Positions 5,826 through 38,559 of a stretch of DNA of 64,000 bases are shown here, one piece after another. The notes beneath the pieces are model-generated. The model was not told where the DNA came from. It saw only the letters and a list, made by a program, of their open reading frames with translations, and searched no databases. The stretch is taken from positions 31,202 through 95,201 of IMG/VR virus record IMGVR_UViG_3300020198_001494; one strand, 5' to 3'. The number at the start of each line of letters is the position of its first letter. Positions within the stretch are counted from its first letter, which is position 1. Made by a program: the position numbers and the translations under genes. The stretch comes from a virus.

Positions 5826-8633
5826 TTAAGCTCTTACGCTAAGAGTCAATCTAATCCACGAAACACTGAATACTGGTTTATACTTTGCTACAGCTTGAAT
5901 TATTGTTGGATCTAGTGGATCTACATGAACTTCTACACCAGAATAATCTGATAATATAGAGGAGGATTTTAGGAACTCTAATGTACCTTTTAATGATGAC
6001 TCCATATCTCCAATCAAACTGGGAAGATTCTTCTTACCGATAAACGACTCAAGAGATGCTCTAGAGTCTTGCTGAACTTTATCAATGATCAACGTAACAT
6101 ACGGAGTTCTGGTAAGAACGTTGCTCATATCTGATGTAAACCATTGTCTTACTCTTATAGTAGGCTTTAGATCTTCAAGAACTGTAATACCTGCTATAGC
6201 AACTTGATTAGCTTCAACAGCATCTAGAACTCTAGAAAGTCTCTTGAATCCAACAAGCTCTTTTCTGGTCATGTCTGTAGCTACATCATATTGTGGTGAA
6301 ACCAACTTACCTGCCATAGCAGCAGCTAACATTGATCCATCCACTAAATACTCATTCTCTACACCCATTTCATCAACAATACCGAGAATTACTCCTTCCG
6401 GATAAAGTAATGTCATCCTGCTAGTGGATAATCCAGGTGCGAGTTGCTGAGCCTTAACTGGTGTAGTACCGATTGGGAAACCTAGTACAGCAACCCTCTC
6501 CGCTTGATACCGCTCTGAGGACATTCTTTCACAATGAGTCTTTAAGTAAGCCTGAACATCACCGGCTGTAGTTAGTGGAACAATAATATCAGCGTTATAA
6601 AGATTTTGAATCTTCTTCTCTAACTCTGTAATAGCATTAATATATGCTGTAGAATTAGCATCGGATTTACCAAACTCTCTTTTAATTTGTTTAATAGCAA
6701 CGGCTTGAGCACCGTTCAAGAAAGCTAAATGAGCGGCTAATGACACTTTATTATCAATAGATATCGTGCCGTATTCAGCTTCGATAGCTTTTTCTTTAGT
6801 CCAAACCTTGGCGCTGTAATCAGTTTTATCCCACTTATAAGAAGTATAGTAAAACTCACCAATAGAGGGCTCAAGGCCAGATTTATTATATGTTTTTACT
6901 ATAGCCGTATCATCAACACCGACATCTTTAGTATTAAGGACATAAAGTTTAATACCTGATATATCTAGAACCGCACCAGGATCAGTTGTATACTCATATT
7001 CTGAAGTAACTACAAATACTATCTTATCGTCAGCAGCAAAAGTAAGATTTGCATCAGCATCCGGCCATACGGTAAATCTAACCCCAGTTTTAGGATCTAC
7101 GTAGGTACGACCAACCTTACCTTTATTTGCATTATTAGTGGTAACAGAACCAGAACCAGTATTTACATTAGAAGATACTGTAAACTCTGTAGAACTTGTA
7201 AAAGTTAAGGTAACTTTTTCAGTTATTGAATACCCCATAACAGTTTGAAGATCCGAAACACCACCAGGCCATAATTTAGCCTCAGCATAATCGGTATCGG
7301 CAATACTAGTTTCACCGCCAGAACTAGTTTTAGGACTAACTATAGCATGTGCAGGTTTTCCGCTTGTTAAGCTAGATAACTTATATTTACCGGTACCTGA
7401 CGCTCCAGCTACAGTGCATTTAACTGTATAAGTTTCATCCACTAACATGTTATACCAGTAAGTGACTTCAACTACGGCTGTTTTAGCTACAGCAGCCGAT
7501 AAAATGATATTCTTGTTAGCATGATCCACATAGCTAACTTTACTTAAATTTCCGTCTACCCATACAGATACTTTAGAGTAGTCTTTTGTTGGTCTGCCTA
7601 AGCCAGAACCATCAGTCGGTGTATAAGATACCTTCCATGTCATAGTTGTTGCATCATTTACACTCGCTAATACAGCAGTAGCCAACTCTTTATGCATATG
7701 GTTATCTATAAGGGTGGATAACACCTGAGTATCATCAAAATACTCGGCTTTCGGAGTATGATCACCAAATTTAACTAAATAGGAATGACCCCAATTAATA
7801 CGATCACCCTCATTTACGTAATCGTATCCTTCAGCATAATCCATCTTACCAGGGAATTTACCCATAGATATCATAGAAGAGACACCTTTATTCGGTAGAG
7901 GATCAAAAGTATCTTGGTAGGTATTTGTCCAATAAGTAACTAAAACTGTTTTTCCATCCGCTGGAGCAGCAGCTAAAGTAATGACGCCATTAGTACCGTC
8001 AACTGAAGAAACAACTACTGCCACACCATCGACTTTTACAGTTACTTTAGAAATATCTGTAGTGGTAACTCCACCGCCTGTACCATCAACTATTCTTGGG
8101 TAAAGAACATAAAAATCTTTTCTAGTACCATTAACTTGATTCGATAGATCTTCATCAATCCTTTGAGTATCACCACGATGATAATAATAAGTAACAGTTA
8201 CGGTATCAGTAGATAGTGGTAATTGAGATAACCAGATATCACCAGTTTCCCCTACTACCTTAGCTACACCAGCAGGCTCATCATTAATCAAAACCTGAAC
8301 ACTACTAATACTGTTAGACGTGACCCCCTTGCCTGCACCGTCCACAATTGGAAAATTTCTCACTCGGATACGGTTTAATGTACCGTCATTATCAACAAGC
8401 TTATTTAGCTCATTTACGAATCTACCGGACATATCCTCTTTATTAGAAAGAGTATCAACTGAAGCTGAAGAACCGCGAACCATCTCAAGGTTCAATTTTG
8501 TATAAGTTTCAGAACCAACACCTATAATTACTGGAATTCTCGCACCAGCAGCACCGGAAGCCCCATCGGCAGCTACTATAGTATTGGTATAAACACCTGG
8601 CGGAACATATGAAGTGAAAGGACCGATACCCAT
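5826..8633 (-). CDS. Contractile tail sheath protein with inserted beta domains
   Basis: N-terminal YVPPGVYT and C-terminal sheath core (HCERMS...ERVAVLG...AAAMAG...YKPVFSVSWI). Three internal repeats of an ~90-aa beta domain. Confidence 0.9.
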   Translation of the reverse strand: MGIGPFTSYVPPGVYTNTIVAADGASGAAGARIPVIIGVGSETYTKLNLEMVRGSSASVDTLSNKEDMSGRFVNELNKLVDNDGTLNRIRVRNFPIVDGAGKGVTSNSISSVQVLINDEPAGVAKVVGETGDIWLSQLPLSTDTVTVTYYYHRGDTQRIDEDLSNQVNGTRKDFYVLYPRIVDGTGGGVTTTDISKVTVKVDGVAVVVSSVDGTNGVITLAAAPADGKTVLVTYWTNTYQDTFDPLPNKGVSSMISMGKFPGKMDYAEGYDYVNEGDRINWGHSYLVKFGDHTPKAEYFDDTQVLSTLIDNHMHKELATAVLASVNDATTMTWKVSYTPTDGSGLGRPTKDYSKVSVWVDGNLSKVSYVDHANKNIILSAAVAKTAVVEVTYWYNMLVDETYTVKCTVAGASGTGKYKLSSLTSGKPAHAIVSPKTSSGGETSIADTDYAEAKLWPGGVSDLQTVMGYSITEKVTLTFTSSTEFTVSSNVNTGSGSVTTNNANKGKVGRTYVDPKTGVRFTVWPDADANLTFAADDKIVFVVTSEYEYTTDPGAVLDISGIKLYVLNTKDVGVDDTAIVKTYNKSGLEPSIGEFYYTSYKWDKTDYSAKVWTKEKAIEAEYGTISIDNKVSLAAHLAFLNGAQAVAIKQIKREFGKSDANSTAYINAITELEKKIQNLYNADIIVPLTTAGDVQAYLKTHCERMSSERYQAERVAVLGFPIGTTPVKAQQLAPGLSTSRMTLLYPEGVILGIVDEMGVENEYLVDGSMLAAAMAGKLVSPQYDVATDMTRKELVGFKRLSRVLDAVEANQVAIAGITVLEDLKPTIRVRQWFTSDMSNVLTRTPYVTLIIDKVQQDSRASLESFIGKKNLPSLIGDMESSLKGTLEFLKSSSILSDYSGVEVHVDPLDPTIIQAVAKYKPVFSVSWIRLTLSVRA

Positions 8634-9575: not shown

Positions 9576-11450
9576 TTACATAATCCTCTCAAATATATTA
9601 CTAATCATAGGCATATATCTAGGTTTAAATTCAAATTTCTCGCCAAACACATCTAAATAATACTGTTCAACAGAAACAACATGAATATCTCTCAATTTAA
9701 CTGAAATAGTATTACGTATGTGCCAGTCTGTAACAAATTTTACGGACAGATTAGCCATATACATCTGTTCTGTAGTATTATCTTCATAAACTTGTTCTGA
9801 CTCACCTTGCATAGATACTTCCTCTAATGCCAGCCCCTCAGAATCAAACATTTGCTTTTTAGACAAGAGGAACATATAAGTGAGATCTGCTATTTCTTCC
9901 TGCTGAATAGGGTCTAATGCAACAGCCGTAACATCAAATGATAAATTAAACTTTCCACCAAACTCATCTGCTACCACATCTCTTTTATCAAAAACTATAA
10001 CCATTTGTTTATCGCCTTTAGTAAGCCTTTTACCAAAGGATAAAATTACACCCGGTATAACCTCATTATTATATTGGTAAGGTTTTATCTCAAACGGTCC
10101 TAATGTATTTTGAACGTACATATAACTTGCTGTTACTATATCATTTTCTTGTGGTAATAAATTAAAAGAAATTTCATTTGTTGTACTATCAAAAGAAAAA
10201 TCTCCAGATTCTTTACTTAATAAGTGTCCATTAAATCTAACTTCAAGAGTTTTTGAAAGTATATTAGTATCTGATAGTTTATAACTTCCCTCAATGGCAA
10301 AAACTTCTGATACTGGTACATTATCTCTAACGGTAGTGTTATAATATAAATATGTTGCTAGCAAGCCTCTATTCGGCAGCAATTTTCTAGAAAAATTGAC
10401 TCTTTTCCTGTTTTCTACACTGAAAGTTAAACTCTGTCTTGGGGCGTATTTTTCTAAAGATTCACTTCTAAATATTGGAACATGATCTAAATAAATTTCT
10501 ATGGATGATTCTAAAGGTTTTTCATCTGGTAACTCTATGTATGTTTCAAACCCAGATGTATTTTTCTTTAAAATTTTTCTAGTTACTTGAGAAAAAAATG
10601 TCCACTCTGTACCAGCAATTAAAAGTCTGTTAAGAGATTTAGATAGTATATGAAATGCTCCCGGTCCCGGCTTTTTTAAAAATGTAACTGTTTTTTTAAT
10701 GCTATCATAAGTATAATAATCTTTTCCAAGAATAGTTTCGTCTACTATAAGACTAAAGTCATCATCAGCCACATCCATATTAAAAAATATGTAAGTTCCC
10801 TTAGCTGTCCCATAAGTCAGTGGGACACTATTTTTAGTAATCAATGGATCTACTACAAAATGAGATTCATCTACCATCTCTACGCCATAGTATCCGGCTA
10901 ATGCTAAGGCTCTATATCTGTATCTAGCAGTAACAACAGACCCTAAAGGTGGAGGTATTGTTAACTTCACTACTCCTGTTAATCCATCTATATAAGAAAC
11001 GTGTGATTCTCTTCCATCTACCTTTATTTCTATAGAATTCATATCTGGTTTAGTTAAAATAACACTCTCACCATCATTATCTACAGAAACTACCGGTTTT
11101 TTAGATAACTGAAAAGATATATTAGTGCCTAATACTTGATTAGAAAGATCCTCTCTAACCAATGGAAACATATTTTTAGTATCTTCTCTGACCCACTCTA
11201 TAGACTGACCGGGGAAATCTGCTACATTAACTAAAGCCACATGTGAAAGAACTCTGCCGACGTAGTTATTAGCATCAAGCTTAACTTGATCGGCAGAGCT
11301 ACTTTTTACTACTAATCCATACTTTGTTTGCTCATCATAAGGGAACTTATTAGATACCCTTACTTTACTATAAATAGGATGAGTTTTAAAAGACTCCTCT
11401 AGTTCGTAGATAAGCCTCCGCTTGACTGAATTAGTAAGCTGAAAGTAAAT
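9576..11450 (-). CDS. Tail completion/terminator-like structural protein with inserted beta domains; probable non-canonical ATT start
   Basis: The frame stays open 70 codons upstream of the called GTG at 11240 (IYFQLTNSVKRRLIYELEESF...). GGAGG lies 9 nt before ATT 11450. Contains the EDLSNQV.G beta domain also seen in the sheath. Confidence 0.55.
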   Translation of the reverse strand: MYFQLTNSVKRRLIYELEESFKTHPIYSKVRVSNKFPYDEQTKYGLVVKSSSADQVKLDANNYVGRVLSHVALVNVADFPGQSIEWVREDTKNMFPLVREDLSNQVLGTNISFQLSKKPVVSVDNDGESVILTKPDMNSIEIKVDGRESHVSYIDGLTGVVKLTIPPPLGSVVTARYRYRALALAGYYGVEMVDESHFVVDPLITKNSVPLTYGTAKGTYIFFNMDVADDDFSLIVDETILGKDYYTYDSIKKTVTFLKKPGPGAFHILSKSLNRLLIAGTEWTFFSQVTRKILKKNTSGFETYIELPDEKPLESSIEIYLDHVPIFRSESLEKYAPRQSLTFSVENRKRVNFSRKLLPNRGLLATYLYYNTTVRDNVPVSEVFAIEGSYKLSDTNILSKTLEVRFNGHLLSKESGDFSFDSTTNEISFNLLPQENDIVTASYMYVQNTLGPFEIKPYQYNNEVIPGVILSFGKRLTKGDKQMVIVFDKRDVVADEFGGKFNLSFDVTAVALDPIQQEEIADLTYMFLLSKKQMFDSEGLALEEVSMQGESEQVYEDNTTEQMYMANLSVKFVTDWHIRNTISVKLRDIHVVSVEQYYLDVFGEKFEFKPRYMPMISNIFERIM

Positions 11451-11454
11451 ATGA

Positions 11455-12015
11455 TTAATCCTCCACTTTTTCAGTATTACATTTAACTAAAGAATGTGGG
11501 CAATATCCAAAATGTCCTAAAGAAAAATTACAATTCATACATAAAACTCTTAATCCAATATCTATAGGAAAGTTATTTTTCTTTAGCCATTCATAAAAAG
11601 ATCCACCAACTTTATTTTTACCAAAAATAGTTTTTCTATGTTTTGCTCCATCATTATTAACATGATCTATAGATAAAAACTCTAAATTAGTTTCACCACA
11701 ACATTTACATATACACCCACCATAAGTATTAAATACTTGTAATTTTAAAGCTAGCCTTTTTGCTCTTTGATTAGAATTAATCCTATCTCTGTTACTATCT
11801 CTCCACTTTCTCGCCCAATCACGACATTTACAACATTTTTTAAAAAAACCTTCTACTTGATTTCCACACTCGCATAAACCATCTTTACGATTACGTTGTT
11901 TTCTTATTGGATCGTAACTATATCTACATAATCTACAATGTGACGATAGTCTACCTTTATAAGTAGAAAAATACTGATCCTCTTTTTCTACTCCGCACTT
12001 AGTACATTTTTTCAA
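11455..12015 (-). CDS. Free-standing HNH homing endonuclease with N-terminal zinc ribbons
   Basis: CKCCG...LSIDHVNNDGAKHR...LRVLCMNCN, plus several CxxC pairs. Confidence 0.8.
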   Translation of the reverse strand: MKKCTKCGVEKEDQYFSTYKGRLSSHCRLCRYSYDPIRKQRNRKDGLCECGNQVEGFFKKCCKCRDWARKWRDSNRDRINSNQRAKRLALKLQVFNTYGGCICKCCGETNLEFLSIDHVNNDGAKHRKTIFGKNKVGGSFYEWLKKNNFPIDIGLRVLCMNCNFSLGHFGYCPHSLVKCNTEKVED

Positions 12016-12038: not shown

Positions 12039-13277
12039 TTATTTCTTTTTATTCTTTTTAGAAGCGGCTTTTACAGCCTCTTGAGAAATTACTTTCTTTT
12101 TTGGTGACTCTTTCTTTGGGGCTGGCTTAAGTTCTGGTTTTTTAGTAATATTATCAAATTTTACACGTTTCGTAGGATCTGAAGCAATACCAATCGCTAC
12201 ATCTTTTAAAAGATCTCTTGATTTCTGACTACCTGGGGTTTTTACCGCCTTTCCTACATCTTTAACACTTTTACCCAAACCAACTTGCTTATCTAAACGT
12301 CTTATAGAAATGTCCTGTTCCGCCCAGTTCTTTCCTAATGATTTAGAAAAATCTGAAGATAGGTTATCTACTCTTTTTCTACTTTTACCTATATTTTTTA
12401 CTTTACTATAATCCTTACTTAGGTCTAAATCAGACTTCTTATTTATCTTCCTCTCTAAAGACTTTCTAGCTACCTTATTACCTTTATTGCAAGAGCAATT
12501 ACCACAACAATTGCCACTACCACAATTATTACCGCAATTAGCACAAATAACCATAGCTAACTTTGGATTCTGTGTACGAATATTATTAAGCATAGCTTTT
12601 CTAGCTACTACAGGCATAAACTCATCTAAAGTTTTACCAGTATCCATCTCAGGAGTAAAGTTAGCGGCATTGCCTGTATAAGTGGTAACACCGTCTTCAT
12701 GGGATAAATACTGTTTTTTATACCAATGTAAGCCTTTATTACTGTCTAGATTGTCTTGAATGAAAGTACCGGAATTCTTATGCTCACCGATAGTGTCTTC
12801 GATACCAGGATGAAGCTGACTGGCTAACTTGATTAAATCTTGAGCTACCTTTAGTAACTTACTATCAACATTTTTTCTAGAAGCTTTCTTAGATACCTTA
12901 TTCTGCATAGCTTTTCTAGCTATCATAGGCTGTCTAGGAGCAGAGCCTCCAGAATAAAGTTCCTGAACTTTTTGATCTACAGTTTTCGGATAAAAATCAG
13001 AATTATGTGTCTGATCACCATAAACATTCATGGCGTCACTGGTGGCTTCCTCTATTGAAGGAGTATAAAACTCATCCTCTGGAATCTCAGCACCATGCTG
13101 TTGTGGTAGATACTGTTGACGATACCAACTATATGTCTTATTGATATCAATATTATCTTGTACTTTTTCACCAGAGTTGATATGTGCGCCAATCTGGTCT
13201 TCAATACCAGGAGCCAAAAGGCTGGCTAATTTTGCTAACTCTGAAGCCATCTCTAATTTTTCGGATCTCTTTGACAT
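12039..13277 (-). CDS. Putative internal head (poly)protein with duplicated domain and Cys-rich segment
   Basis: Two copies of KLAS.L.PGIED.IG.H.NSG..QDN.D.NK..WY..QYL. Repeated ARKA/ARKS motifs, the segment CANCGNNCGSGNCCGNCSC, and a basic tail. Confidence 0.5.
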   Translation of the reverse strand: MSKRSEKLEMASELAKLASLLAPGIEDQIGAHINSGEKVQDNIDINKTYSWYRQQYLPQQHGAEIPEDEFYTPSIEEATSDAMNVYGDQTHNSDFYPKTVDQKVQELYSGGSAPRQPMIARKAMQNKVSKKASRKNVDSKLLKVAQDLIKLASQLHPGIEDTIGEHKNSGTFIQDNLDSNKGLHWYKKQYLSHEDGVTTYTGNAANFTPEMDTGKTLDEFMPVVARKAMLNNIRTQNPKLAMVICANCGNNCGSGNCCGNCSCNKGNKVARKSLERKINKKSDLDLSKDYSKVKNIGKSRKRVDNLSSDFSKSLGKNWAEQDISIRRLDKQVGLGKSVKDVGKAVKTPGSQKSRDLLKDVAIGIASDPTKRVKFDNITKKPELKPAPKKESPKKKVISQEAVKAASKKNKKK

Positions 13278-13377: not shown

Positions 13378-14775
13378 CTACTCTATAACCTTAATAATTG
13401 GAATCATATCAACGATAAAGGATCTTCTTGATCTATTAAAATCATTAGTAAGTTTATCTTCTAAATCATATGCATCGTCTTCCATTTGTTTTTTACGTAA
13501 TCTTTCTCTCTGACGTTTTTCAGCTTTCTCTAACTCTTTACGCCTTCTTTCATCCTCTTTCTTTATACTGTTATACTCTTTTAACCTTCTCGCTTCTTCT
13601 CTGGCTTTATTGATTTCTTCACGTCTTTTACGTTTAGACTCCTCTAAATCTCGCCTAGTTTTAACACTGCTTTCTAAATCTTTATCTTTTTCTTGCTGCT
13701 TATTTTGTAATCTCTGTTTTTCATCTTTGATAGAATCTGGCTCATCTTTATTATCAGACTCCTCTACTGTGAATTTCTTCTCGGTTTTCCTCTTAGGCTT
13801 TTCTGTCCTCTTGATATCTTCCTCATCTTCTCTAACTTTTATAACCTTTTGCTCAAGCTCACCCTCTGGGGAATCTTTTAAATCTCTAAGGAATGGAGAT
13901 TTTCTCTCTTCGTCTTCTTTTAGCTCTGATCTTTCCAAAGATTCTAAAGGCTCTTCCTTACCTTCCTCAACAGTAAATGGTTTTGTTGGTATTGGTTCTG
14001 GAAGCTCCTCTGGCTCCTCTTTTATCTCAATCTCTTTACCAACATCAGTCTCTTTTACTTCAGCTAAATCTTCCTCACCTGGACGCATTGGAATAGGTCT
14101 TTCATTTAAATCAGCAAGATCATCCGGAGTAAGTATATCCTCTACTTCTTCTACTTTAGTTACTGGCTCTTTTTCTTCCTCTAGAAACTCATCAGTAAAT
14201 GGACCTTTTTCAATAGGCTCTTTTTCTTCAATCTCTGGTTCAAACTCTTCTGGTTTTTTAGCAGTATCCCAATCCATTTTATTTAGCATTCTACGTAATG
14301 CCACATAAACATGCTTACAAACTAAATTCTTTCCAGCAGGATCTCTTTTATTAGGAGCTACCAAAAGTCCTCTTGGTGGGTTACCTGGGCTTGTATAAAG
14401 AGCACCATCGTTATATAAATGATACTGACTACCGTAATATAGAAAAGCTGGACAACTACAATTCACTTTAGCCCTAATGTCATGCTTATCGAAAACAGTA
14501 TTTGGATCGTCTAATAATTGAACGTTCACAGTATGTCCAGACGGATCGGAGTAATATTCACCACACCTAACATCCCAAGACCAAACACCACTACTTTGAT
14601 TAATTTTCTGTAATGCTGTTGTACAGTTATATGACTTATTTTTAAATTCAGAATTACTATTAGCTAATTCATCTAAAGATAAATAAGCTATTTTAATGTT
14701 TTTTAAATAAACGTCTCCTATCTTTACTATAACACCTAGTAAAGTTTCTGTTTTTACCGCGTATCTAAAAAACAC
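13378..14775 (-). CDS. SWIM zinc-finger protein with long acidic Glu/Pro region and charged coiled coil
   Basis: VNCSCPAF...LVCKHV matches the SWIM CxCx(n)CxH pattern; followed by an E/K/P-rich region. Confidence 0.7.
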   Translation of the reverse strand: MFFRYAVKTETLLGVIVKIGDVYLKNIKIAYLSLDELANSNSEFKNKSYNCTTALQKINQSSGVWSWDVRCGEYYSDPSGHTVNVQLLDDPNTVFDKHDIRAKVNCSCPAFLYYGSQYHLYNDGALYTSPGNPPRGLLVAPNKRDPAGKNLVCKHVYVALRRMLNKMDWDTAKKPEEFEPEIEEKEPIEKGPFTDEFLEEEKEPVTKVEEVEDILTPDDLADLNERPIPMRPGEEDLAEVKETDVGKEIEIKEEPEELPEPIPTKPFTVEEGKEEPLESLERSELKEDEERKSPFLRDLKDSPEGELEQKVIKVREDEEDIKRTEKPKRKTEKKFTVEESDNKDEPDSIKDEKQRLQNKQQEKDKDLESSVKTRRDLEESKRKRREEINKAREEARRLKEYNSIKKEDERRRKELEKAEKRQRERLRKKQMEDDAYDLEDKLTNDFNRSRRSFIVDMIPIIKVIE

Positions 14776-14776
14776 T

Positions 14777-15787
14777 TTATGACTCTAGCAAAGCTCCTAC
14801 TAATAGTCCTCTAGCAATAGCTGTTAGAGGTTCTTTAGCTAATTTTATATCACTCACTTTAAATGGAAATTTAGATTTATATTCATTAAATGTTTTTATA
14901 AAAAGATCAACAAACCCAGGAGCCATCGTTGTACCACCGGCTAATACTATTGGAATTGAATCAGGTATCTCAGCTTGTACTTTTTTCATTTCTAATAACA
15001 TCAAATCTAATGATTTCGATATCATAGCCTGGTAATAAAATGCTATGGCCTCTTCCTCTTTTGTTGCAAAAGAGGAAGAATTAAGATTAACTCCCTTCTC
15101 TTTAATAGCTTGTATTCTAGTTGCTGTGCTGCTAACTGCTTTGCCACTATTAGTGTCTATCCAATCGCCTCCGAGTTGTATACTGAACTGTAGTAAAGGC
15201 ATTGTCATATAACTAAGACAGAAATTAAACATTCCTGCCCCTATAGAAATAGAAATACCTGTAAAATTAGTATCTTTAAGCTCTGAGTAGCATATAGCAA
15301 GAGCCTCGTTCATAGGAACCGGGTTAAATCCCAAACCTTGTATTATATTATAAAATACTTTCTCGTGATATATATTATTTACACTCTTATCATCAACTGG
15401 ATTAGCTGGAACAGAATAAAAAACCTGTTCACCACTTACAACTGGTTTACCTAAAAGACTTCTTACCATAGCAGTAAGTATTTCTCCAGAAGTATTTAAC
15501 TCCTCTGGGGAAATAATACCTTTACTTAGCGGCCTCCTAGCTTCTCTCTTAAGCAAATTAGCAAAATTTATAGCTTCCTCACCAATTACATAAAGCTCAT
15601 TATCTTTCTCGATAGTAAGAGCGCCTGTCATTTTTATTGTATTTTTAACAAAAGACTCGTTAGATATATCTATAAAAGCATCACGCATTCTACCTATAAC
15701 AATATTACCGTCTTTACTTTTTGCTGCGGAAATAAGATTAGACGTACCTACGTCTAGCCCTCTACCAGGTATAAAATCTGAAGACAC
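14777..15787 (-). CDS. Actin-like ATPase (MreB/MamK-like)
   Basis: Phosphate-1 GLDVGTS, then IGEEA...RPLSKGII, VFYSVP, NEALA, phosphate-2 SIGAGM, GGDWID, adenosine IVLAGG and connect-2 EPLTAIARG. Confidence 0.88.
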   Translation of the reverse strand: MSSDFIPGRGLDVGTSNLISAAKSKDGNIVIGRMRDAFIDISNESFVKNTIKMTGALTIEKDNELYVIGEEAINFANLLKREARRPLSKGIISPEELNTSGEILTAMVRSLLGKPVVSGEQVFYSVPANPVDDKSVNNIYHEKVFYNIIQGLGFNPVPMNEALAICYSELKDTNFTGISISIGAGMFNFCLSYMTMPLLQFSIQLGGDWIDTNSGKAVSSTATRIQAIKEKGVNLNSSSFATKEEEAIAFYYQAMISKSLDLMLLEMKKVQAEIPDSIPIVLAGGTTMAPGFVDLFIKTFNEYKSKFPFKVSDIKLAKEPLTAIARGLLVGALLES

Positions 15788-15797
15788 GAAAAACCAC

Positions 15798-16352
15798 CTA
15801 CTTCTTTTTTATCTTTTTAATTGCTTTAACAGCAGAATCAGTATCTATAATGGATCCAGAGCTTTCTTGTTTTACTGAGCCTATATCGGGTACATTATCT
15901 GTTTTAATCTTAGGAACGAATACAGGAGCGTCTAAAGAAATACCGCCACTATTATCAAGAGGTGCTGAAGGTTTAGCATTTTGTTGTAATGGGGCATGAA
16001 CATTATCTACTTTATTTCTCAAACCTACTAATTGATTAAATACTTCCTCAATTATTCCCGCTAGTCTACCTACTTGAGCTTTTAAATCTTCAAACTCCGA
16101 AACACTAACTGCCGGAGTATTAGATACATTAACTTTAGATGGTGGTTTAGGTCCAATCCTTCTATTGGGATCTGACATAGCCTGTCTTAATTCTGCGCCA
16201 GATACCTCAACTAACCAATGCTTCAGAATAGCTTCTTTAACCATTGGATTACTAATCTGATCGTCATCTAGCCAATTTATGTCGCCGTATTTCCAAATAT
16301 GCCCTGTTTCTAAATCCATTATACCGTGTACTGTAGATCTATATGAAATCAC
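15798..16352 (-). CDS. Hypothetical protein, candidate actin partner
   Basis: Small N-terminal domain, coiled coil (FEDLKAQVGRLAGIIEEVFNQL), disordered linker and basic C-terminal helix. Ends 10 nt upstream of the actin gene. Confidence 0.45.
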   Translation of the reverse strand: MISYRSTVHGIMDLETGHIWKYGDINWLDDDQISNPMVKEAILKHWLVEVSGAELRQAMSDPNRRIGPKPPSKVNVSNTPAVSVSEFEDLKAQVGRLAGIIEEVFNQLVGLRNKVDNVHAPLQQNAKPSAPLDNSGGISLDAPVFVPKIKTDNVPDIGSVKQESSGSIIDTDSAVKAIKKIKKK

Positions 16353-17299: not shown

Positions 17300-18508
17300 C
17301 TACAGTATTTCCTCCCACACCTTCTTTCTTGCTGCTATTTGCTCTTTCGTAGGAGGTGTAGGAGGATTTGCATTTGGTGGAATTACTAGTTTACCGTCAA
17401 GTGGTACAAAATATCTTATATCCTTAGTCTGTATTAATGATAAAGAAAACTGTTGTTGTAGTGGAGTTCCCCCTACAACAGATAAACTAACTGCACCCAC
17501 TGCAAACCTATCCCCGTTCTTTCTTACAACAAAATCTCTTTGTGAAATTAAGGGGGTTTGTCCAGTCCAAGTATCAAATTGAAAAGTAGGCTTTAATCCT
17601 AAATCAGTAGCTTCTAATGATTTAGGAGCATCTGGGGAAGCAATTGAAATATCATATGGTCCTGTATATCCGCCAACCCATCCAGTACCAAAACATATTT
17701 TGCAATCATTCGTAGACTGTTGATGAGTCGGGTAAAAGGACTCGCACCTATCCCCAGCCCACTTTCTTAAAAAGAGTTTGACCATTTCACCACCTTGTTC
17801 AAGAATGTAACCATTTCTACCCATTGCCTCCTGCCATACAGGATCTACTTCATTTATAACATCTGAGTTTATCGCTATACAAGCATCTAAAGGTGTTTCT
17901 TTTAGTCCCTCATCATCTGATCCAACTGTAGTTAATTTATAATAAACACGCTTGTTAAGCGATATGGATACATAATTTGAATTATAATAATACTTACAAA
18001 CTACAGTACTATTTTCACTCGGTAAAAGAGGCTCTATGTTTCTTTTAGTCCTGTGATCATAATATAAAAAAGTATTAAGATAAACATGTCCTTGATGGCC
18101 AAGAACTTTTAAAGGCTTTACTTCAGTACCATCAATAACAACAGAAACATCTCTACCGTTAGTAACTTCAGTATCTACAGCATCATTTATTACCATAGGT
18201 ATATTATCTACCTTAAAAATCCACTCACTATTTGGACTTTTTCCCTTAGTTAAAAACTTAGTAGAAACATCCTCTTGTACTAATGACACCTCATTAGCGT
18301 CTCTATAGTATCCAACGGTTACTGGATTTTTATTTACTCTAATATAAGATCCTTTTGGGTCATCATATGCTCTATAGATATTTACTCCTTTTACTACAAA
18401 AAACCCATTTTCAGGCAGCAACGAAGGGTCATCCCAAGTAAGGTCAAAAGCCCATTGGGTTCCCGGATTATAAAGACCTATATTAACCGGTGATACTGGA
18501 AACGCCAT
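17300..18508 (-). CDS. Neck / head-closure protein
   Basis: C-terminal LFLRKWAGDRC...CKICFGTGWVGGY...RDFVV pattern of large-myophage neck proteins; N-terminal beta domains. Confidence 0.6.
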   Translation of the reverse strand: MAFPVSPVNIGLYNPGTQWAFDLTWDDPSLLPENGFFVVKGVNIYRAYDDPKGSYIRVNKNPVTVGYYRDANEVSLVQEDVSTKFLTKGKSPNSEWIFKVDNIPMVINDAVDTEVTNGRDVSVVIDGTEVKPLKVLGHQGHVYLNTFLYYDHRTKRNIEPLLPSENSTVVCKYYYNSNYVSISLNKRVYYKLTTVGSDDEGLKETPLDACIAINSDVINEVDPVWQEAMGRNGYILEQGGEMVKLFLRKWAGDRCESFYPTHQQSTNDCKICFGTGWVGGYTGPYDISIASPDAPKSLEATDLGLKPTFQFDTWTGQTPLISQRDFVVRKNGDRFAVGAVSLSVVGGTPLQQQFSLSLIQTKDIRYFVPLDGKLVIPPNANPPTPPTKEQIAARKKVWEEIL

Positions 18509-27109: not shown

Positions 27110-27985
27110 TTAACGAACAGTAGTAACCTCTAATGTTTGTAATCCTAATGGATTATGCACCCCTATGCCAATGTTCTCGAAGACCGAGAATCCAATGAGT
27201 CTGTTCTTAGGATCGTCAGCAGAAAGTACAGTTAGTTCTGTTCTGACTGGAATTCTACCGAAGAATTCAGGTTCAGCACAAACAAATACTGCACCAACTG
27301 GAACGATTCTTGACACGATTATCTGTGCGCCCCAGAGGTACGCCATCAAACCGGTCTTTAACAGGACTGCCTGGCTCTCGATGTCGAGAATATCTCTTCC
27401 GAATTTCCGGATATCGGTATAATCACGGGCATTCATGAAGATTCTAGAAACACGAAGATCCCACTTCTCGATATCAGCGAAAGCATCAGCTAGAACTGCC
27501 GGAGTAATTGGAGCACCAGTTCTAATCTTCGCATTTGGAGCGCCAGCCGCATCGCGGATAGCTGCCATAATTGCGAAAGATTTGGTGTCCTCTTGCGCCT
27601 GGATTTCAGCCTTAGCTAAGTCTTGCGCTCTTTCGATCAAGTCGAATCTACGCTCTTTAACCTGAGTTAGAGGGATTTCTGGGTTGCTTGCTAACTCGAA
27701 TAGAGGGAATAGGACTCTCGTACTCTTTGTTACGGCAAGAATGCCTTCACCTTCTTCACCGACTACATAGGCGGTGACATCAGGATCTCTGTCGTATACC
27801 GGAAGGGCACCATCAGGTAGCTGTTCAACTAAATAAGCTTTACGGGCTACTGAAGTGTAATCTCTCCGACGACGGAGGGGCTGAGTCATTGAAGCGGCTA
27901 AACGCTGACGACCCTGGGATGTTCTTAAAAGATCCCCTATGATTTGCTGTTTTAGCTCATTTGAAATTTGTTCTGGCATCTTCAT
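27110..27985 (-). CDS. Major capsid protein (HK97 fold)
   Basis: Follows scaffold and cement genes, has SD AAGGAGGT and GC-richer codons. RLAASMTQPL...Y..VARK..VEQLPDG...FELASNPEI...AKAEIQAQED resembles, from memory, the Bxz1/cluster C mycobacteriophage capsid type. Confidence 0.9.
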   Translation of the reverse strand: MKMPEQISNELKQQIIGDLLRTSQGRQRLAASMTQPLRRRRDYTSVARKAYLVEQLPDGALPVYDRDPDVTAYVVGEEGEGILAVTKSTRVLFPLFELASNPEIPLTQVKERRFDLIERAQDLAKAEIQAQEDTKSFAIMAAIRDAAGAPNAKIRTGAPITPAVLADAFADIEKWDLRVSRIFMNARDYTDIRKFGRDILDIESQAVLLKTGLMAYLWGAQIIVSRIVPVGAVFVCAEPEFFGRIPVRTELTVLSADDPKNRLIGFSVFENIGIGVHNPLGLQTLEVTTVR

Positions 27986-30302: not shown

Positions 30303-33300
30303 TTACAAATAATCAAATCTTCTATTTCGCTTTAAATGGCTCTTTATTATTGTTTCTTCCATAATAGCTGGTCCAGGTAATTGTTGTTTATTAAGTTCTT
30401 CTAAATACTGATCCCAGTCAAATTCTTCTTCGTCATCATCTAAAGGCTCAGCGAAAAATATTCCGGACATATTTGACTTATTAGCAGGAGCGGGTTTATA
30501 TGGAGGATCTTCTTCCTCCTCATCTAAAGAACCTAAACCGTCATCTACTTCCCCAGAAAGATCTAAATCTGCAAAAGGATCATCACTACTAACTTCATCG
30601 CCACTTTCTTGTTCTGCATCACTTGGATCTTCTGACTGATCCTCATCTTCCATAAAATAATCTAAACCAGCCTCTTCCTCTGCTGGGTCTTTCTTTTTTT
30701 TATCCTCTTCAGCGAATAATAATCTTCCCCCACCTAAGGAAGCTGTTACTGGCATACCCTTAACTAAAGACTGCACTGAACTGTACCCTGGATTTGCTGC
30801 ATAAGATAAATAAATTGTGTCCTGCTCCTGATTTAGAACATTTCTCAAAACAGCCCCAGGGAAGGCAGGTTGTGCTACCCAGGAAGCTTCAATGAAACGA
30901 ACTGAAGAAGAATCAGACTCATGCCCGCAATTATGAGTAACAATACCATCTATTATATAAGAATGATCCTCTTCTACTTCCAAATTAAATACTTCACCAA
31001 CATATGGTTCAGATTCTATAGAAACAACTTTATGTAAATTATACTTCTCTCCATTATGTTGCCCGCGTGGTTTACTTATCTCTATTTTTCTACAATCGCC
31101 TAGAAAATTACTAAATTGTTTATCGGATAAATCAGAATTTACTGATAAATCATAAACATCTTTTGGAGATAAATAAAGTTGAAAACTTGCTCTCCAATTT
31201 CTATCGTCTTTAACTTCTTCTATATTTCTATTAATGGATCTTAAAGCACTAAGAGTAGTTTTTTTATCGTTAAAAATAACCTGTCCTCTATTCCAAATAT
31301 TTAATCTTGTGGCTATTATCTCAAAATCATGAAATAATTTCTCTGAAGTAGTATAACCCCTAACCCTACCCTGCTCATCTATAGAACCATCACCAGTTAG
31401 CCACCCCTCCAAAAGTTTTCTCTGTATAGAAAGAGGTGATTTAAGTAATTTACTAGAAAGGGATTTTTCCCAGGCTCTTTTTCCAGAACAATGTTTCTTC
31501 ACAAAATACCAAAAGTCTTTAGACTCTACCACCACAGATAATTTTTTTGCTGATGCAATAACTGCTCTAGTACTATTATTAAAATCTTTTATTAAATGAC
31601 CAACATTTTTTTCCATTTCTGAACGTTCATAATGATAAATCTTTACTTTACTATCTTCAAAATCTCTCTCAATTATTTCCTTAATCTTATCAGCAATATC
31701 CATTTCATCATTACCGTTTAAAGTAAAACGTACTTCATAGTTTAATCTAGAGGAATCATCATAATATCCTTCTGCGGCATATAACCCTATAACCCATGCG
31801 GTATCTGCCGTTATTCCGAAGGATCTTCTCGCTGAATCTCTACTTTTTGATATTCTTGGAGCTTGTTTAACTAAAAAATCCCCTACTTTAATATCTTTAG
31901 CTTCTTTAAAAGATAACTCCCCAGTAATTTTATCGTAAACATAATGTGGATGATTGTAAGTAGAGCGTATATTGTTAATGCCACCCTCTATCTTAATGTT
32001 AATTAAATTACCAACAAAATCTTTTCTAAATGTTTTTGTAACTTTTCTCCCAGACCCTTTATGAGTAATTACCATGTCCCCAACATTCACTTCATCGATA
32101 TATTTATATTCACCATCAGCCATAAGAACTTTGTTATCCCAGGGCAGACAGAGTTCTGCTATCATACGAACATTTCCGTATTTATCTTGGAAATATTGTC
32201 CTTTATTAGCTCTAACACAAATACATAAGCCACTTTCATCTGCCGCTAAATTACCACATTTAGTACAGATCGTATAAGCAGCAATACAACCCATAGACAT
32301 TGCATTATAAGATCCAACTCTTATTTTATTAATAAGATCTCTATGTTTTTTATGAGTAGCTACCAAAATATCTGTATACAATGTATCATTATTTACTTCT
32401 CTTAAAACAGCATCTACGATCTTACCCTTAGACAAAGCAGGAACTTGAACATGCTCCACATAATTTTCTGCTCCTATAAATGTTTTATAGGTTTTTTTAA
32501 GGACTCCACGAGTCCAGCTATCACAGTTATGAACTAAAACACCATTAGCTACATAAGTATGATTATCCTCTACCTCTATGTTATAGACTTTATCAGAAAA
32601 AGGTACTTCTTTAATATTTCTAACTGAATGATAAGTAAAATCTTGGTCTGCTAAATAACGTACAAAATTTCTCTTAGTCACTACCTTGAAAGAATAAGTA
32701 GAGTCACGCATAAGATCTTCTAAATATCCTTGTTGTATATTAATTTGATAAGAGTCATTGTCATAAAAAGTCTTACCAGATAACTTTCCAGACGTTCTTA
32801 CTAACTCAGCACCAGTTCCGACATGGAAAAATAATCTAGCATTTATCCCAACTCTTTTTGCTATTTGATAACATTGTTCAATAACTTCTCTATTACTTAA
32901 ACTTACTGAACCTCTTATATCATTTTTTCTAGATTTTGCAGTAAATACTGAACCATCACTTTCTAGTAATCCCATTAAAAGGTAACGTTGAATGTCTACT
33001 GGCCATAAAAGAACTGATGAATGTAACTTTTTTTGCTTAACGTATTGACCAGCATGCTTAATAAACCACTCTGCTGTTTTAGGGGATTTATTAACATTTA
33101 CTATTATGACATTATCATTAATATTATAATATAAAGTACTACCTAATCCAAATTCGTCACTGAGTAATTTCTGGCATAATAAAGCTACATTTTCTTCTTG
33201 TATAGAAAAACTAAATTGTACGGAATATGGGTAATTTTCTTCTGTCTCATTAGGGTATCTTCTGTATAACGGCCTATTTTCAACGTAACCGTCCCCTAAA

Positions 33301-33917
33301 TATAGCCCCAAAAGTCTAGCTTTTCCCGGTGTAACATCAGGATCTTTAATATCACCTTTAATGATAGGTGATCTCAAAACATCCCTCTTTTTTAAAGATG
33401 AAGCCTCTGACCAATTAAATTCTCTTTTACCCTTTTTACCTCTACCTGTTCCATAATTAGTAAATTTATAGGAAGAAAATGGGTGTTCAGGAGTAGCTAA
33501 TACCTTAAGTCCAACCCCTGTTGGACTTATTTCTACTAAGTTTCCACTATAATATCTCTCATATAACCTAGTAACAGGTTTACTGGTGCCGTCATGTGTT
33601 ATAACTAAATCACCTATCTCTATATCTTTTATAAATTTAGTAGTACCATCAGCCATTAATATTCTTGTATCGCCTGGAAAACAGTTACCGTTGATATATT
33701 GCTCTGTACTCTTAGTTATGTAATGATCACACCATGGCTCAGTATCTACACTTGCTATAATTGTACAATGAGAAAATAAATAGTCTCTTGGACTAAACGC
33801 TCTCAAATTAAAAGATGAATTTTGTCCTAAACTAGCAGTTCTTACCCTACTCCAATAACCATGTGGTTTTACATCTGGAGTAGCTACTTGAGCAGATGCA
33901 TAAATCTTAAAGGCCAT
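30303..33917 (-). CDS. Prohead (capsid maturation) protease interrupted by two inteins
   Basis: Spliced exteins (~411 aa) read NGN|CDSW...FIGAENYVEH...GKIVDA...SMGC...CTKCG...EL|CG...FIEASWVAQPAFPGA, carrying the His/Ser/Glu motifs of phage prohead proteases. Confidence 0.85.
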   Translation of the reverse strand: MAFKIYASAQVATPDVKPHGYWSRVRTASLGQNSSFNLRAFSPRDYLFSHCTIIASVDTEPWCDHYITKSTEQYINGNCFPGDTRILMADGTTKFIKDIEIGDLVITHDGTSKPVTRLYERYYSGNLVEISPTGVGLKVLATPEHPFSSYKFTNYGTGRGKKGKREFNWSEASSLKKRDVLRSPIIKGDIKDPDVTPGKARLLGLYLGDGYVENRPLYRRYPNETEENYPYSVQFSFSIQEENVALLCQKLLSDEFGLGSTLYYNINDNVIIVNVNKSPKTAEWFIKHAGQYVKQKKLHSSVLLWPVDIQRYLLMGLLESDGSVFTAKSRKNDIRGSVSLSNREVIEQCYQIAKRVGINARLFFHVGTGAELVRTSGKLSGKTFYDNDSYQINIQQGYLEDLMRDSTYSFKVVTKRNFVRYLADQDFTYHSVRNIKEVPFSDKVYNIEVEDNHTYVANGVLVHNCDSWTRGVLKKTYKTFIGAENYVEHVQVPALSKGKIVDAVLREVNNDTLYTDILVATHKKHRDLINKIRVGSYNAMSMGCIAAYTICTKCGNLAADESGLCICVRANKGQYFQDKYGNVRMIAELCLPWDNKVLMADGEYKYIDEVNVGDMVITHKGSGRKVTKTFRKDFVGNLINIKIEGGINNIRSTYNHPHYVYDKITGELSFKEAKDIKVGDFLVKQAPRISKSRDSARRSFGITADTAWVIGLYAAEGYYDDSSRLNYEVRFTLNGNDEMDIADKIKEIIERDFEDSKVKIYHYERSEMEKNVGHLIKDFNNSTRAVIASAKKLSVVVESKDFWYFVKKHCSGKRAWEKSLSSKLLKSPLSIQRKLLEGWLTGDGSIDEQGRVRGYTTSEKLFHDFEIIATRLNIWNRGQVIFNDKKTTLSALRSINRNIEEVKDDRNWRASFQLYLSPKDVYDLSVNSDLSDKQFSNFLGDCRKIEISKPRGQHNGEKYNLHKVVSIESEPYVGEVFNLEVEEDHSYIIDGIVTHNCGHESDSSSVRFIEASWVAQPAFPGAVLRNVLNQEQDTIYLSYAANPGYSSVQSLVKGMPVTASLGGGRLLFAEEDKKKKDPAEEEAGLDYFMEDEDQSEDPSDAEQESGDEVSSDDPFADLDLSGEVDDGLGSLDEEEEDPPYKPAPANKSNMSGIFFAEPLDDDEEEFDWDQYLEELNKQQLPGPAIMEETIIKSHLKRNRRFDYL
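30930..32150 (-). mobile_element. Intein 2 of prohead protease (407 aa, LAGLIDADG endonuclease)
   Basis: CLPWDNKVLMADG...IGLYAAEG...EGWLTGDG...VFNLEVEEDHSY...THN|C. Confidence 0.92.
32526..33683 (-). mobile_element. Intein 1 of prohead protease (386 aa, LAGLIDADG endonuclease)
   Basis: CFPGDTRILMADG...TPEHPF...LGLYLGDG...GLLESDG...VYNIEVEDNHTY...VHN|C. Confidence 0.92.
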
Positions 33918-36382: not shown

Positions 36383-38152
36383 TTACATGCCTTTTGGTGT
36401 TTCTACGTTAGCGGAGGGCATTTCACCCCCCATTCCTCCTCCTTCACCACCTAGATCACCGCCTAACTCACCACCTAAATCGCCTCCCCCCTCTAAGTCT
36501 CCCAAATCTCCCCCCAGATCTCCTTCCATCCCGCCAAGATCACCACCCATTCCACCACCTAAGCCCCCTAATCCTTCTTCACCACCACCGGCATTTTCTT
36601 TATACTCAAGCCTCAAATATTTAGACAATCTCTCTGCTACATCTGTATTTTCTACAATTTTCTGCCCTACTGATTGATAAACATTTCTAAGAACTTCATT
36701 AAAAGTTGCATCATTAACTGTACCCATATCTTGTTCTAATCTTATACGAATACTTACTGGATCTATATTAAATAAATCAAGAATTGTAGCTATATCTATA
36801 GATCCTTTATTATATAACTGGAATAATGAATCAAACACATCAGCACTATCCCTAAGGGCCAATCTTCTAAATGCTAATTTAGGATATAGCAGTTTCTCCA
36901 CGCCATCATCGTCTTTTTCTATAAAACCATTGGCCTTAGCAACTGGTTTAAATAAAACTTCCTCTACAAAATTCTGCATTATTTCCCTAAAAAGTAAATA
37001 TCTAGTATTTAGAACCTCAAGAGTTATTCTTGTTCCAGAAAAAGTAGACTCCCCTGTTAGTAAATCTGCTGTTATACCTAACCCAGCTAATAATCTGCTA
37101 GAAATTCTCTCATATTCAGCAGTTAGATCTAACAATCTATCATTAGCACCTATCTCCTCCCAATTAAGCTGATAGTTGGTAACAATTGAGTAATCAGGAT
37201 CAATCATTGATGCCTCAATTTGTTCTCTTAATTCTTCGACATCAGCAGCAGAGATATTTTCTGCCCATACAATTCTTTTTGGGGTCATATTTCTACTAGC
37301 AATCATTGTCTGTGCTTGTCTTAATTTTTCTAACTCTAATAAATCTCTAAGAACACGATCTAAAATACTAGTACCTGAATCTTCATAATCTGACATCTTT
37401 CTGGCTAAATGATAAACATGACTTCCAGAATATGGATCTGTATCTAAAGGTATATTATCCCCTCTTTTTATATAATCTACGATATCTTTAGGCATAGATT
37501 TTATAGCATCTAAAGCCGCTCTATCACCAATAGCAGATCTTTGAACTAACTCTCTAGTAGATGTATCTGGCATTAAAGAAATTTCCACAAAATCAGTGAA
37601 TGGGTAATGCTTTACTTCAATAGTATCTGGATCTAATACCGTAATCCTACTCCAAGCTCTAGTTTCTTCATCCCACTCAGAAAATACATAAACGTCTCCA
37701 ATAAGATTGTACTCATGGGCTACTGAAAGTAATTTTTTAAATAAACCAATTTTTTCTACCATTCTTTCAAAGAATCTTAGTATTTTTTTAGCTGTTTCAT
37801 GATCTTTAGCTTCTGGCATAGTCAACATTACTTTAGATAAAGGAATTTCAGAATGAAGATCTATAGCTGGACCAACAATTGGATCATTTCTATAGTAATG
37901 GCGATACCACCTTCTAACCTCCCGCTTAGAGCGAGGAAGTTCTAACATATCTGTTGATAGATATGGGCTTATGAAAGGTGTTGAGTTAGAATCAAGGATA
38001 TCTGTGCCATTTCTATTATTAAATGCGGAATCTAAAGAAGACCCAGTATTAGAACTGCCGCTCTTAGTCCAGGCTACAGTAGCATGATATTTTTTATTGT
38101 TTATAGTACTTGCAGTAACAGTACTAGCGGTATTTTTCTTTGCTCTAGGCAT
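36383..38152 (-). CDS. Portal protein
   Basis: Downstream of TerL. RHYYRNDPIVGPAIDLH...EYNLIGDVYVF...LDPD...GTSIL...; Gly/acidic GGDLGG C-terminal tail. Confidence 0.88.
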   Translation of the reverse strand: MPRAKKNTASTVTASTINNKKYHATVAWTKSGSSNTGSSLDSAFNNRNGTDILDSNSTPFISPYLSTDMLELPRSKREVRRWYRHYYRNDPIVGPAIDLHSEIPLSKVMLTMPEAKDHETAKKILRFFERMVEKIGLFKKLLSVAHEYNLIGDVYVFSEWDEETRAWSRITVLDPDTIEVKHYPFTDFVEISLMPDTSTRELVQRSAIGDRAALDAIKSMPKDIVDYIKRGDNIPLDTDPYSGSHVYHLARKMSDYEDSGTSILDRVLRDLLELEKLRQAQTMIASRNMTPKRIVWAENISAADVEELREQIEASMIDPDYSIVTNYQLNWEEIGANDRLLDLTAEYERISSRLLAGLGITADLLTGESTFSGTRITLEVLNTRYLLFREIMQNFVEEVLFKPVAKANGFIEKDDDGVEKLLYPKLAFRRLALRDSADVFDSLFQLYNKGSIDIATILDLFNIDPVSIRIRLEQDMGTVNDATFNEVLRNVYQSVGQKIVENTDVAERLSKYLRLEYKENAGGGEEGLGGLGGGMGGDLGGMEGDLGGDLGDLEGGGDLGGELGGDLGGEGGGMGGEMPSANVETPKGM

Positions 38153-38157
38153 ATAAT

Positions 38158-38559
38158 TTAAATTTCATCCTCTGGAGTAGAAGGTATTTGTGTCCACTCC
38201 TCTATTCTAGATACATTTCTTTTTACTGGTAATTTTTTAAAAGAAACTCTACTATAGTTACTTCTATTACCAGATTTTTCGTGATCTGCCTCACTATCTA
38301 ATACTTTTGTTCTAAAGTCTTCATGAGACAAATAGGCTTTTCTACCTCTTTTAACAACATCTGATAAGACTCTATGGCAGCCGTTAGAGACTTGAAGTAA
38401 TCTTCTGTACTCTGATAATGATGGACTTCCTACTTTTCTTGATTCTTTATATAAGGCTTCATAAATATTTGAAAGATTATCTAAATCTTTTTTAATTGAC
38501 GACACTAATCTATCGGCCTCAGCGCTCATTTGACACCAATTATCATTGGATAAACTCAC
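38158..38559 (-). CDS. Hypothetical protein between TerL and portal
   Basis: Overlaps the TerL stop; helical. Confidence 0.55.
   Translation of the reverse strand: MSLSNDNWCQMSAEADRLVSSIKKDLDNLSNIYEALYKESRKVGSPSLSEYRRLLQVSNGCHRVLSDVVKRGRKAYLSHEDFRTKVLDSEADHEKSGNRSNYSRVSFKKLPVKRNVSRIEEWTQIPSTPEDEI

Follow-up and report, generated by a model that had tools for sequence, protein, structure and literature searches.

A volactin-family actin gene and a coiled-coil partner in the virion gene module of large uncultured phages

What is a gene for an actin-like protein doing among the virion genes of a phage? The question is raised by IMG/VR virus record IMGVR_UViG_3300020198_001494 (95,201 bp, CheckV completeness about 49%), of which we analysed the 64 kb between positions 31,202 and 95,201, hereafter called the window. 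An earlier note on this DNA, made from the sequence alone, had described an MreB/MamK-like ATPase, an adaptor-like protein and an acidic SWIM-finger protein as a three-gene cassette. The present analysis reveals that the 336-residue ATPase is a full-length member of the volactin family of actin-fold proteins and not an MreB, and that it is carried, at a fixed place in a common virion gene module, by hundreds of large or huge uncultured phages. Our preferred reading, to which we assign a probability of roughly 0.55, is that the locus represents a two-gene, late-expressed actin-plus-adaptor module within the virion operon. The two genes and their principal features are as follows:

15798..16352, minus strand: adaptor-like partner, 184 residues, a divergent member of a coiled-coil family termed F2
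16173-16352, minus strand: its N-terminal domain (residues 1-60)
15978-16103, minus strand: its long helix or coiled coil (residues 84-125; predicted local distance difference test, pLDDT, 88-97)
15909-15926, minus strand: its PVFVPK motif
15801-15842, minus strand: its C-terminal basic helix (residues 171-183, after a disordered stretch)
14777..15787, minus strand: actin-fold ATPase, 336 residues, volactin family (Pfam PF25216)
15737-15757, minus strand: phosphate-1 motif LDVGTSN of the actin
15293-15310, minus strand: NEALAI motif of the actin
15230-15247, minus strand: phosphate-2 motif SIGAGM of the actin
15155-15172, minus strand: GGDWID motif of the actin
14927-14941, minus strand: adenosine motif AGGTT of the actin

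The actin open reading frame (ORF) matches the Pfam family Volactin (PF25216) with an E-value of 1.8e-72 and 245 bits (cut-off, 35), residues 9-332 aligning with profile positions 3-321, and the match was confirmed on the genome record. No other Pfam family was matched; MreB_Mbl (PF06723) in particular gave no match at an E-value of 0.01. The full set of actin-fold motifs that had been reported is present, including the segments IGEEA (residues 68-72), RRPLSKGII (84-92), SIGAGM (181-186), GGDWID (206-211) and EPLTAIARG (319-327), and the protein retains all 46 of the invariant columns in the homologue alignment (A1). The AlphaFold2 (AF2) model, computed with 31 homologues, has a pLDDT of 92 and a predicted template-modelling (TM) score, pTM, of 0.90. 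Foldseek searches with this model return MamK, MreB and BeeR as top matches (TM-score 0.58-0.73, identity 15-19%), with a probability of 1.00 for these three and for actin, while a sequence search of the PDB gave no match at the sequence level. Pfam, the model and Foldseek all agree on an actin fold. The motif resemblances to MreB and MamK are therefore real at the level of the fold, and both proteins share the same five-motif actin core, but the family is volactin: MreB carries DIGGGT where volactins carry SxGxGM, and it is joined to them by a very long branch. Likewise, the Ser of the phosphate-2 loop, first taken for a local oddity, turns out to be a family-wide trait, since SxGxGM and GDWID are common to 87 phage, 57 Planctomycetota/Omnitrophota, 8 candidate phyla radiation (CPR)-like and 12 Halobacteriota volactins.

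The relationship between the phage and cellular copies was assessed with FastTree (169 sequences) and with an IQ-TREE mixture model (80 sequences), using MreB as outgroup. FastTree resolved a phage clade (87 rows, support 99) and Planctomycetota/Omnitrophota, Halobacteriota and small CPR-like groups; the window actin and that of locus L002, which are 58% identical, form the deepest branch of the phage clade. In the IQ-TREE analysis all cellular volactins fall into one clan (support 99), and MreB attaches on its very long branch among the phage lineages, so that the root is unsure: rooting with MreB yields a monophyletic phage clade in one tree and several deep phage lineages in the other. In both trees, the phage sequences stand apart from the cellular ones, and the window actin lies inside no cellular clade. 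The true MreB proteins of the Planctomycetota/Omnitrophota genomes (427-502 bits) occupy a long separate branch. A recent capture of the gene from a host, which would place it within an MreB or FtsA clade, was examined by hidden Markov model (HMM) and in the trees, and was rejected: the nearest relative is the 58% identical phage protein, cellular proteins reach at most about 42% identity, and the clade is separate. The volactin family may have been exchanged between phages and cells at an early stage, although the root on which this rests is unreliable.

The family is widely distributed. A large protein collection yielded 920 homologues, all of them PF25216, and a profile search of 1.84 billion cluster representatives gave 1,349 clusters at an E-value of <=0.001, and 444 at <=1e-30. 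Matches in deposited phage genomes are confined to two huge uncultured phages (LR745208 and LR756511). A single-sequence scan of IMG/VR with the actin found nothing; an alignment-based scan was needed, and it located relatives on 470 contigs of up to 529 kb. Eighty of these 470 loci were fetched, and the genes of 78 phage loci were mapped. The position of the actin gene in them is defined by the homologues of three window genes:

17300..18508, minus strand: virion-module protein, 402 residues, the upstream edge of the conserved neighbourhood, with a weak PHROG match to 'virion structural protein'
9576..11240, minus strand: DUF2460-like structural protein, 554 residues (Pfam DUF2460, E-value 1.2e-10)
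5826-8633: structural protein of the virion module, 935 residues

The actin gene lies upstream of the 554-residue homologue in 79 of the 80 fetched loci and upstream of the 935-residue homologue in 78, and a homologue of the 402-residue protein precedes it wherever the flank of the locus extends that far. In all 80 the actin gene has the same place in the conserved module, whose downstream part comprises homologues of the DUF2460-like protein, of a 141-residue zinc-ribbon protein and of the 935-residue protein. By tblastn, the 402-residue protein was detected in 72 of 148 actin loci, and homologues of the 554-residue protein in 85 loci. Seven contigs labelled as metagenome-assembled genomes ('MAGs') in the genome collection also group with the phages in the tree; the same virion module is found on six, and all seven are probably phage DNA that was binned with cells.

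Several further features were observed around the phage actin genes. In some copies a LAGLIDADG intein is inserted exactly at the invariant GGDWID (...aR / C...HN / CGDWID), as in L173:14438-16711, L242:11628-13730 and L240:7634-9757, and also in L172 and L244; the insertion at this motif in several phage copies suggests a gene that the phage cannot afford to lose. Two-stretch forms of 680-800 residues are found in large numbers among the 150 best representatives of the family. Directly upstream of the actin in L031, and overlapping its start, is a Vsr/DUF559-type endonuclease (L031:7121-7999). Similar ORFs of about 280-450 residues occupy this slot in L020, L026, L028/L030, L044 and L048, and the slot looks like a hot spot for homing endonucleases. 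The clustering of ORFs had suggested tandem second actins at this position, which proved to be an artefact, the L031 example being the endonuclease; no viral locus has two full-length actin ORFs, and only Omnitrophota genomes do. In most relatives the gene directly upstream of the actin codes for a ferritin/Dps-like protein of about 220 residues (PHROG 3636 'DNA binding protein', weak Pfam Ferritin), represented by L041:7239-7943 and 43 further ORFs in the 78 mapped loci; it is absent from the window.

The second component of the module is the 184-residue protein. Its AF2 model consists of a small alpha/beta N-terminal domain, a long helix, a disordered stretch and a terminal basic helix, in agreement with the coiled-coil/disordered protein ending in a basic helix that had been predicted. 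The same layout (small N-terminal domain, coiled coil, P-x-F-I-P motif and basic C-terminal helix) characterizes the F2 family, which was obtained by clustering the neighbouring ORFs and numbers 64 ORFs among the 78 mapped phage loci. An HMM of F2, built without the window and without L002, matched only one of the 99 window ORFs, namely 15798-16352 (E-value 6.9e-9, residues 85-184). Most often the F2 gene occupies one of the three positions upstream of the actin, any intervening genes coding for a variable protein and the ferritin/Dps-like protein; F2 and actin genes are direct neighbours in the window and some 15 further loci. The 184-residue protein has no Pfam or PHROG match, a word-indexed homologue search returned only the protein itself, and a structure search with its model found only generic coiled coils (Z-score about 5). 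Neither Pfam nor the AF2 model gave any sign of a membrane segment, a known host-targeting domain or a detectable DNA-binding domain.

In order to avoid selecting on the actin, its co-occurrence with F2 was assessed in 80 phage loci picked through the 402-residue protein, which served as an actin-independent probe (A3). Among the 75 loci with at least 5 kb of downstream sequence, the actin is present in 69 and F2 in 69. On a tree of 74 loci, 68 possess both genes, six possess neither, and none has one of them alone; the state changes five times on this tree, and at least three of the changes are forced by supported branches. The actin-less loci retain the flanking module. Together with the both-or-neither pattern, this indicates that the pair behaves as one accessory unit, which is usually kept.

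The partnership extends beyond phages. An HMM of the F2 tail, 32 residues long and built from phage sequences only, was compared with the six-frame ORFs, 2,853 in all, of the volactin loci from outside phages. There were 18 matches at an E-value of <=0.011, and every one of the 18 is a gene that flanks the volactin gene(s) on the same strand: at position -1 in Planctomycetota, at position +2 after a tandem actin pair in Omnitrophota, and in the upstream DUF7139 protein in Halobacteriota. In the 12 Halobacteriota relatives (Haloferax volcanii not among them), the tail motif of the upstream neighbour resembles that of the phage partner; where that neighbour has DUF7139, the phage adaptor has a coiled coil and a small soluble N-terminal domain. 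The cellular volactin loci are ordinary chromosomal contexts, and the actin and adaptor therefore constitute a self-contained module that works outside phages. The inclusion of the upstream protein in the cassette of the earlier note is supported, as that of a conserved partner, by the F2 clustering, the tail motif and the co-occurrence, including synteny in related phage loci.

The gene content of some cellular loci is of interest in its own right. An Omnitrophota cluster (L111:4425-10510, G004 contig 11) codes for a ParA/MinD-like ATPase, a tropomyosin-like coiled-coil protein, two tandem volactin paralogues of about 340 and 465 residues, a small protein with the phage-like tail motif and an Hpt-domain protein; the ParA/MinD-volactin cluster is also found in L109, L113, L121, L126-L128 and L139. 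A small, divergent group of volactins derives from bins assigned to 'Patescibacteria' and the like; here the actin has a gene for a Cdc48-like double AAA ATPase at a distance of one to four genes (L125:6999-9146, L130:1678-3945). Such an ATPase is unusual for these bacteria, and contigs of the L125/L130 type may therefore be archaeal or viral.

In the window (G+C about 33%; genome size of the phage estimated at near 190 kb), nearly all genes lie on the minus strand. The order along transcription is a replication block, an intein-bearing ORF, the portal, another intein-bearing ORF, the major head protein and then the actin region:

45-64 kb: replication block with RecA, a clamp-loader-like protein and Mre11/Rad50-like genes
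38556-41771: intein-bearing ORF
36383-38152: portal
30303-33917: intein-bearing ORF
27110-27985: major head protein (phrog_2522)

The tight coupling of the actin gene to both of its neighbours was confirmed, all three ORFs being on the minus strand, with a gap of 10 nt from the 184-residue ORF to the actin and of 1 nt from the actin to the 465-residue SWIM ORF (TAA a GTG). The SWIM gene is translationally coupled to the actin gene, and a GGAGG ribosome-binding site precedes the 184-residue gene. A promoter/terminator scan found no internal terminator in the co-oriented operon and none that was convincing in the intergenic gaps; promoter-like sites were rarer than in shuffled sequence, and the scan is uninformative as to timing. 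The region had been placed between neck and tail-completion genes. It does lie downstream of the head genes (portal and major head protein), but the flanking genes gave no match in support of either label, and PDB sequence searches with the 402-residue protein (alone and as a profile) and with the 935-residue protein yielded nothing useful.

How might the pair act? By analogy, the 336-residue protein probably polymerises with ATP into dynamic filaments like VolA (HVO_2015) of Haloferax volcanii, a PF25216 protein that forms dynamic filaments in vivo and affects cell shape in the rod-to-disk transition (Schiller et al. 2024, PMC10869688). The window actin and VolA belong to the same Pfam family and have the same SxGxGM phosphate-2 loop and GDWID segment; the window copy differs in being phage-encoded, in its location within a virion operon and in its separate clade, and it scores 245 bits compared to 380-460 for the Halobacteriota copies. 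The 184-residue protein would be the adaptor. Its coiled coil probably dimerises it, the C-terminal basic helix, preceded by P-x-F-[IV]-P, is the probable actin-docking element, and the small N-terminal domain would bind cargo or an anchor. Since the pair is fixed among putative neck and tail genes and is probably co-transcribed, the most likely task of such filaments, late in infection, is to arrange, place or transport parts of virions or the sites of their assembly. A more far-reaching version, which we put forward only tentatively, is that a large, widespread group of uncultured phages builds or moves its virions with an actin-based system of its own, in which dynamic volactin filaments would be coupled to neck, tail or capsid intermediates through a modular adaptor composed of a docking tail and an exchangeable cargo domain.

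Several points weigh against this reading. The tail of the window protein diverges too far to give a significant score with the tail-only HMM (E-value 2.4), and the evidence for F2 membership is the match over the last 100 residues taken together. The independent events of gain or loss on the tree number three to five; all are concordant, and so small a number does not reach significance (sign test, p 0.25). Divergence of the actin-less loci could also have hidden a fast-evolving F2. The occurrence of six related phages in 74 without the pair implies that virions of this kind can be assembled in its absence. Most of the neighbouring genes were left unnamed by PHROG and Pfam, and the flanking structural genes therefore provide no pointer to a particular cargo. 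Finally, we infer polymerisation, ATPase activity and adaptor binding for every phage volactin, as we do tail docking and the nature of the cargo, and the late timing is deduced from gene order only.

The gene that follows the actin was regarded in the earlier note as the third member of the cassette. In the window, this gene and two others separate the actin from the 554-residue DUF2460-like gene, which in most relatives follows the actin directly:

13378..14775, minus strand: SWIM-domain protein with a charged tail, 465 residues, a lineage-specific occupant of a variable slot
14311-14460, minus strand: its CxC...CxH signature (CSC, residues 106-108; CKH, residues 153-155)
13606-14250, minus strand: its acidic Glu/Pro tract (residues 176-390, net charge -31)
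13381-13605, minus strand: its basic charged C-terminus
12039-13277: lineage-specific 412-residue gene, between the SWIM gene and the HNH gene
11455-12015: HNH / endonuclease VII-like endonuclease

The description of this protein as a SWIM-finger protein with a Glu/Pro-rich tract was correct as regards the tract and its motifs. The CSC...CKH signature is invariant in six homologues. Pfam SWIM (PF04434) is the only family matched by all six (best E-value 1.5e-4), but the window copy itself scores 14.5 bits, below the cut-off of 19.6. The top Atlas cluster for the protein is viral, with SWIM in 16% of its members. A scan of IMG/VR with the SWIM alignment gave 125 relatives, of which 80 were kept; 79 of these viral loci contain no match to the actin, F2 or the 402-residue protein, the exception being the L002 contig. 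In the 14 mapped SWIM loci, a gene for a protein of about 320-335 residues is generally followed, at a distance of one to four genes, by the SWIM gene, whose product has 259-793 residues overall and a charged tail. In the one annotated locus, L252, the preceding protein is a phrog_2522 major head protein, of the same head family as that of the window. The occurrence of the SWIM relatives in phages without volactin and near a head gene thus identifies a widespread head-module gene rather than an actin partner. The family, defined by a SWIM-like N-terminal domain and a highly charged Lys/Arg/Glu tail, is represented by L252:4226-6975 and about 79 other viral loci (L248-L326), and could be an internal or DNA-associated head protein.

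These data bear on the idea that the acidic, repetitive SWIM protein resembles MamJ in acting on the actin, as a second adaptor or as a regulator. In favour of the idea are the 1-nt spacing of the two genes, the preservation of their order in L002 and perhaps also in the case of P0122, a second relative whose contig has the same length as that of actin P0005, and a tract with a net charge of -31 and three xFT[DV]E motifs (GPFTDE, KPFTVE and KKFTVE at residues 191, 265 and 333). L002 is, however, the only mapped relative with a SWIM gene after the actin; elsewhere in the mapped phage loci, either nothing fills this slot or it is taken by unrelated genes, some of them for HNH-type endonucleases. 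Moreover, the acidic tail and its motifs are poorly conserved in sequence among the homologues. We therefore give the idea hardly any credence: the MamJ analogy fails, the cassette is really one of two genes, and the SWIM protein would be a separate head-module gene that by chance occupies the variable slot in the small lineage of the window. A ParM/AlpC-like role, in which the actin would segregate or position phage genomes or replication centres and the upstream protein would be a DNA-binding adaptor, is modelled on systems that do work in this manner, AlpC/AlpA of prophage CGP3 and ParM/ParR (PMC4446434), and haloarchaeal salactin likewise aids DNA partitioning. In the window, however, the pair is part of the virion module, a long way from the replication genes at 45-64 kb, and the adaptor lacks a detectable DNA-binding domain. 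As had been noted, there is also no centromere-like iteron array nearby: repeat scans of 9-20 kb found no tandem or iteron-like repeats, the direct repeats between 11.0 and 18.6 kb being two-copy only, mostly imperfect and nearly all within coding sequence. Such a role is very unlikely here.

A further suggestion is that the protein is an assembly ATPase that forms no filaments, or a component of the virion, serving as a chaperone or building block in the neck or tail. The Hsp70 homologue of closteroviruses acts in virion tail assembly, and structural genes adjoin the actin in every relative. In BFVD, the viral structures closest to the model belong to Hsp70 homologues and to gp506 of Bacillus phage G, the Hsp70 matches covering only the N-terminal domains (TM-score 0.5-0.6). 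The window protein nevertheless ends with the actin core at residue 336 and has no substrate-binding domain; its best structural matches, MamK, MreB and BeeR, are filament formers, the same actin-adaptor pair occurs in cellular chromosomes without any virion context, and the six actin-less phages do without it. We consider this suggestion improbable. Somewhat more weight, though still well short of an even chance, is due to the possibility that the actin and adaptor remodel the host, altering its shape or size or blocking its division and thereby making room for many large particles. The sole studied member of the family acts on the rod-to-disk shape transition of Haloferax, cellular relatives reside in cytoskeleton-like clusters with ParA/MinD-like and coiled-coil genes, and the carrier phages are mostly very large (contigs up to 529 kb). 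On the other hand, the gene is fixed within the virion module and not among early or host-takeover genes, and the window adaptor has neither a membrane segment nor a known host-targeting domain.

The actin-plus-adaptor reading can be set beside the cytoskeletal systems of other phages. To our knowledge, these have so far comprised the tubulins PhuZ and TubZ and a few DNA-handling actins (AlpC, ParM-like). The phage actins known are AlpC of CGP3 and the actin-like proteins of Bacillus phages, and our search of the literature found no description of volactin in phages. In AlpC/AlpA and ParM/ParR, the actin of a mobile element has a dedicated adaptor gene directly upstream (PMC4446434), just as in the window; the window differs in its lack of centromere-like repeats and of a recognised DNA-binding domain, in its virion-module location and in its actin subfamily. 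In nucleus-forming jumbo phages, the tubulin PhuZ serves to position the phage nucleus and to deliver capsids (PMC13359090). PhuZ is also a phage-encoded cytoskeletal polymer, with a role of the kind proposed here for the window actin, but its fold is that of tubulin and not of actin; the 95-kb record, only about 49% of a complete genome, yielded no tubulin gene.

An actin family studied in a single archaeon is thus encountered, together with a dedicated adaptor, among the virion-assembly genes of hundreds of large phages. If its filaments organise assembly, this would represent a new principle of subcellular organisation by bacterial viruses, and a bacterial-virus counterpart of the actin-based assembly and transport of viruses known in eukaryotic cells. 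The common tail motif is a testable candidate for the volactin-binding factors sought by the Haloferax study. The window contributes a smaller relative (33% G+C, near 190 kb) on a deep phage branch, and a minimal form of the module, in which adaptor and actin are adjacent, without the ferritin-like and other intervening genes of most relatives; it also displays a SWIM protein that is unrelated to the actin system.

Two further observations concern genes of the virion module. The 402-, 554- and 935-residue proteins have a DUF2460-like domain in common, one domain being reused in three genes of the virion module, and the third of these proteins, 935 residues in the window, is about 1,430 residues long in most relatives. 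The HNH / endonuclease VII-like gene at 11455-12015 occupies a variable slot before the DUF2460-like gene and has no counterpart in L002.

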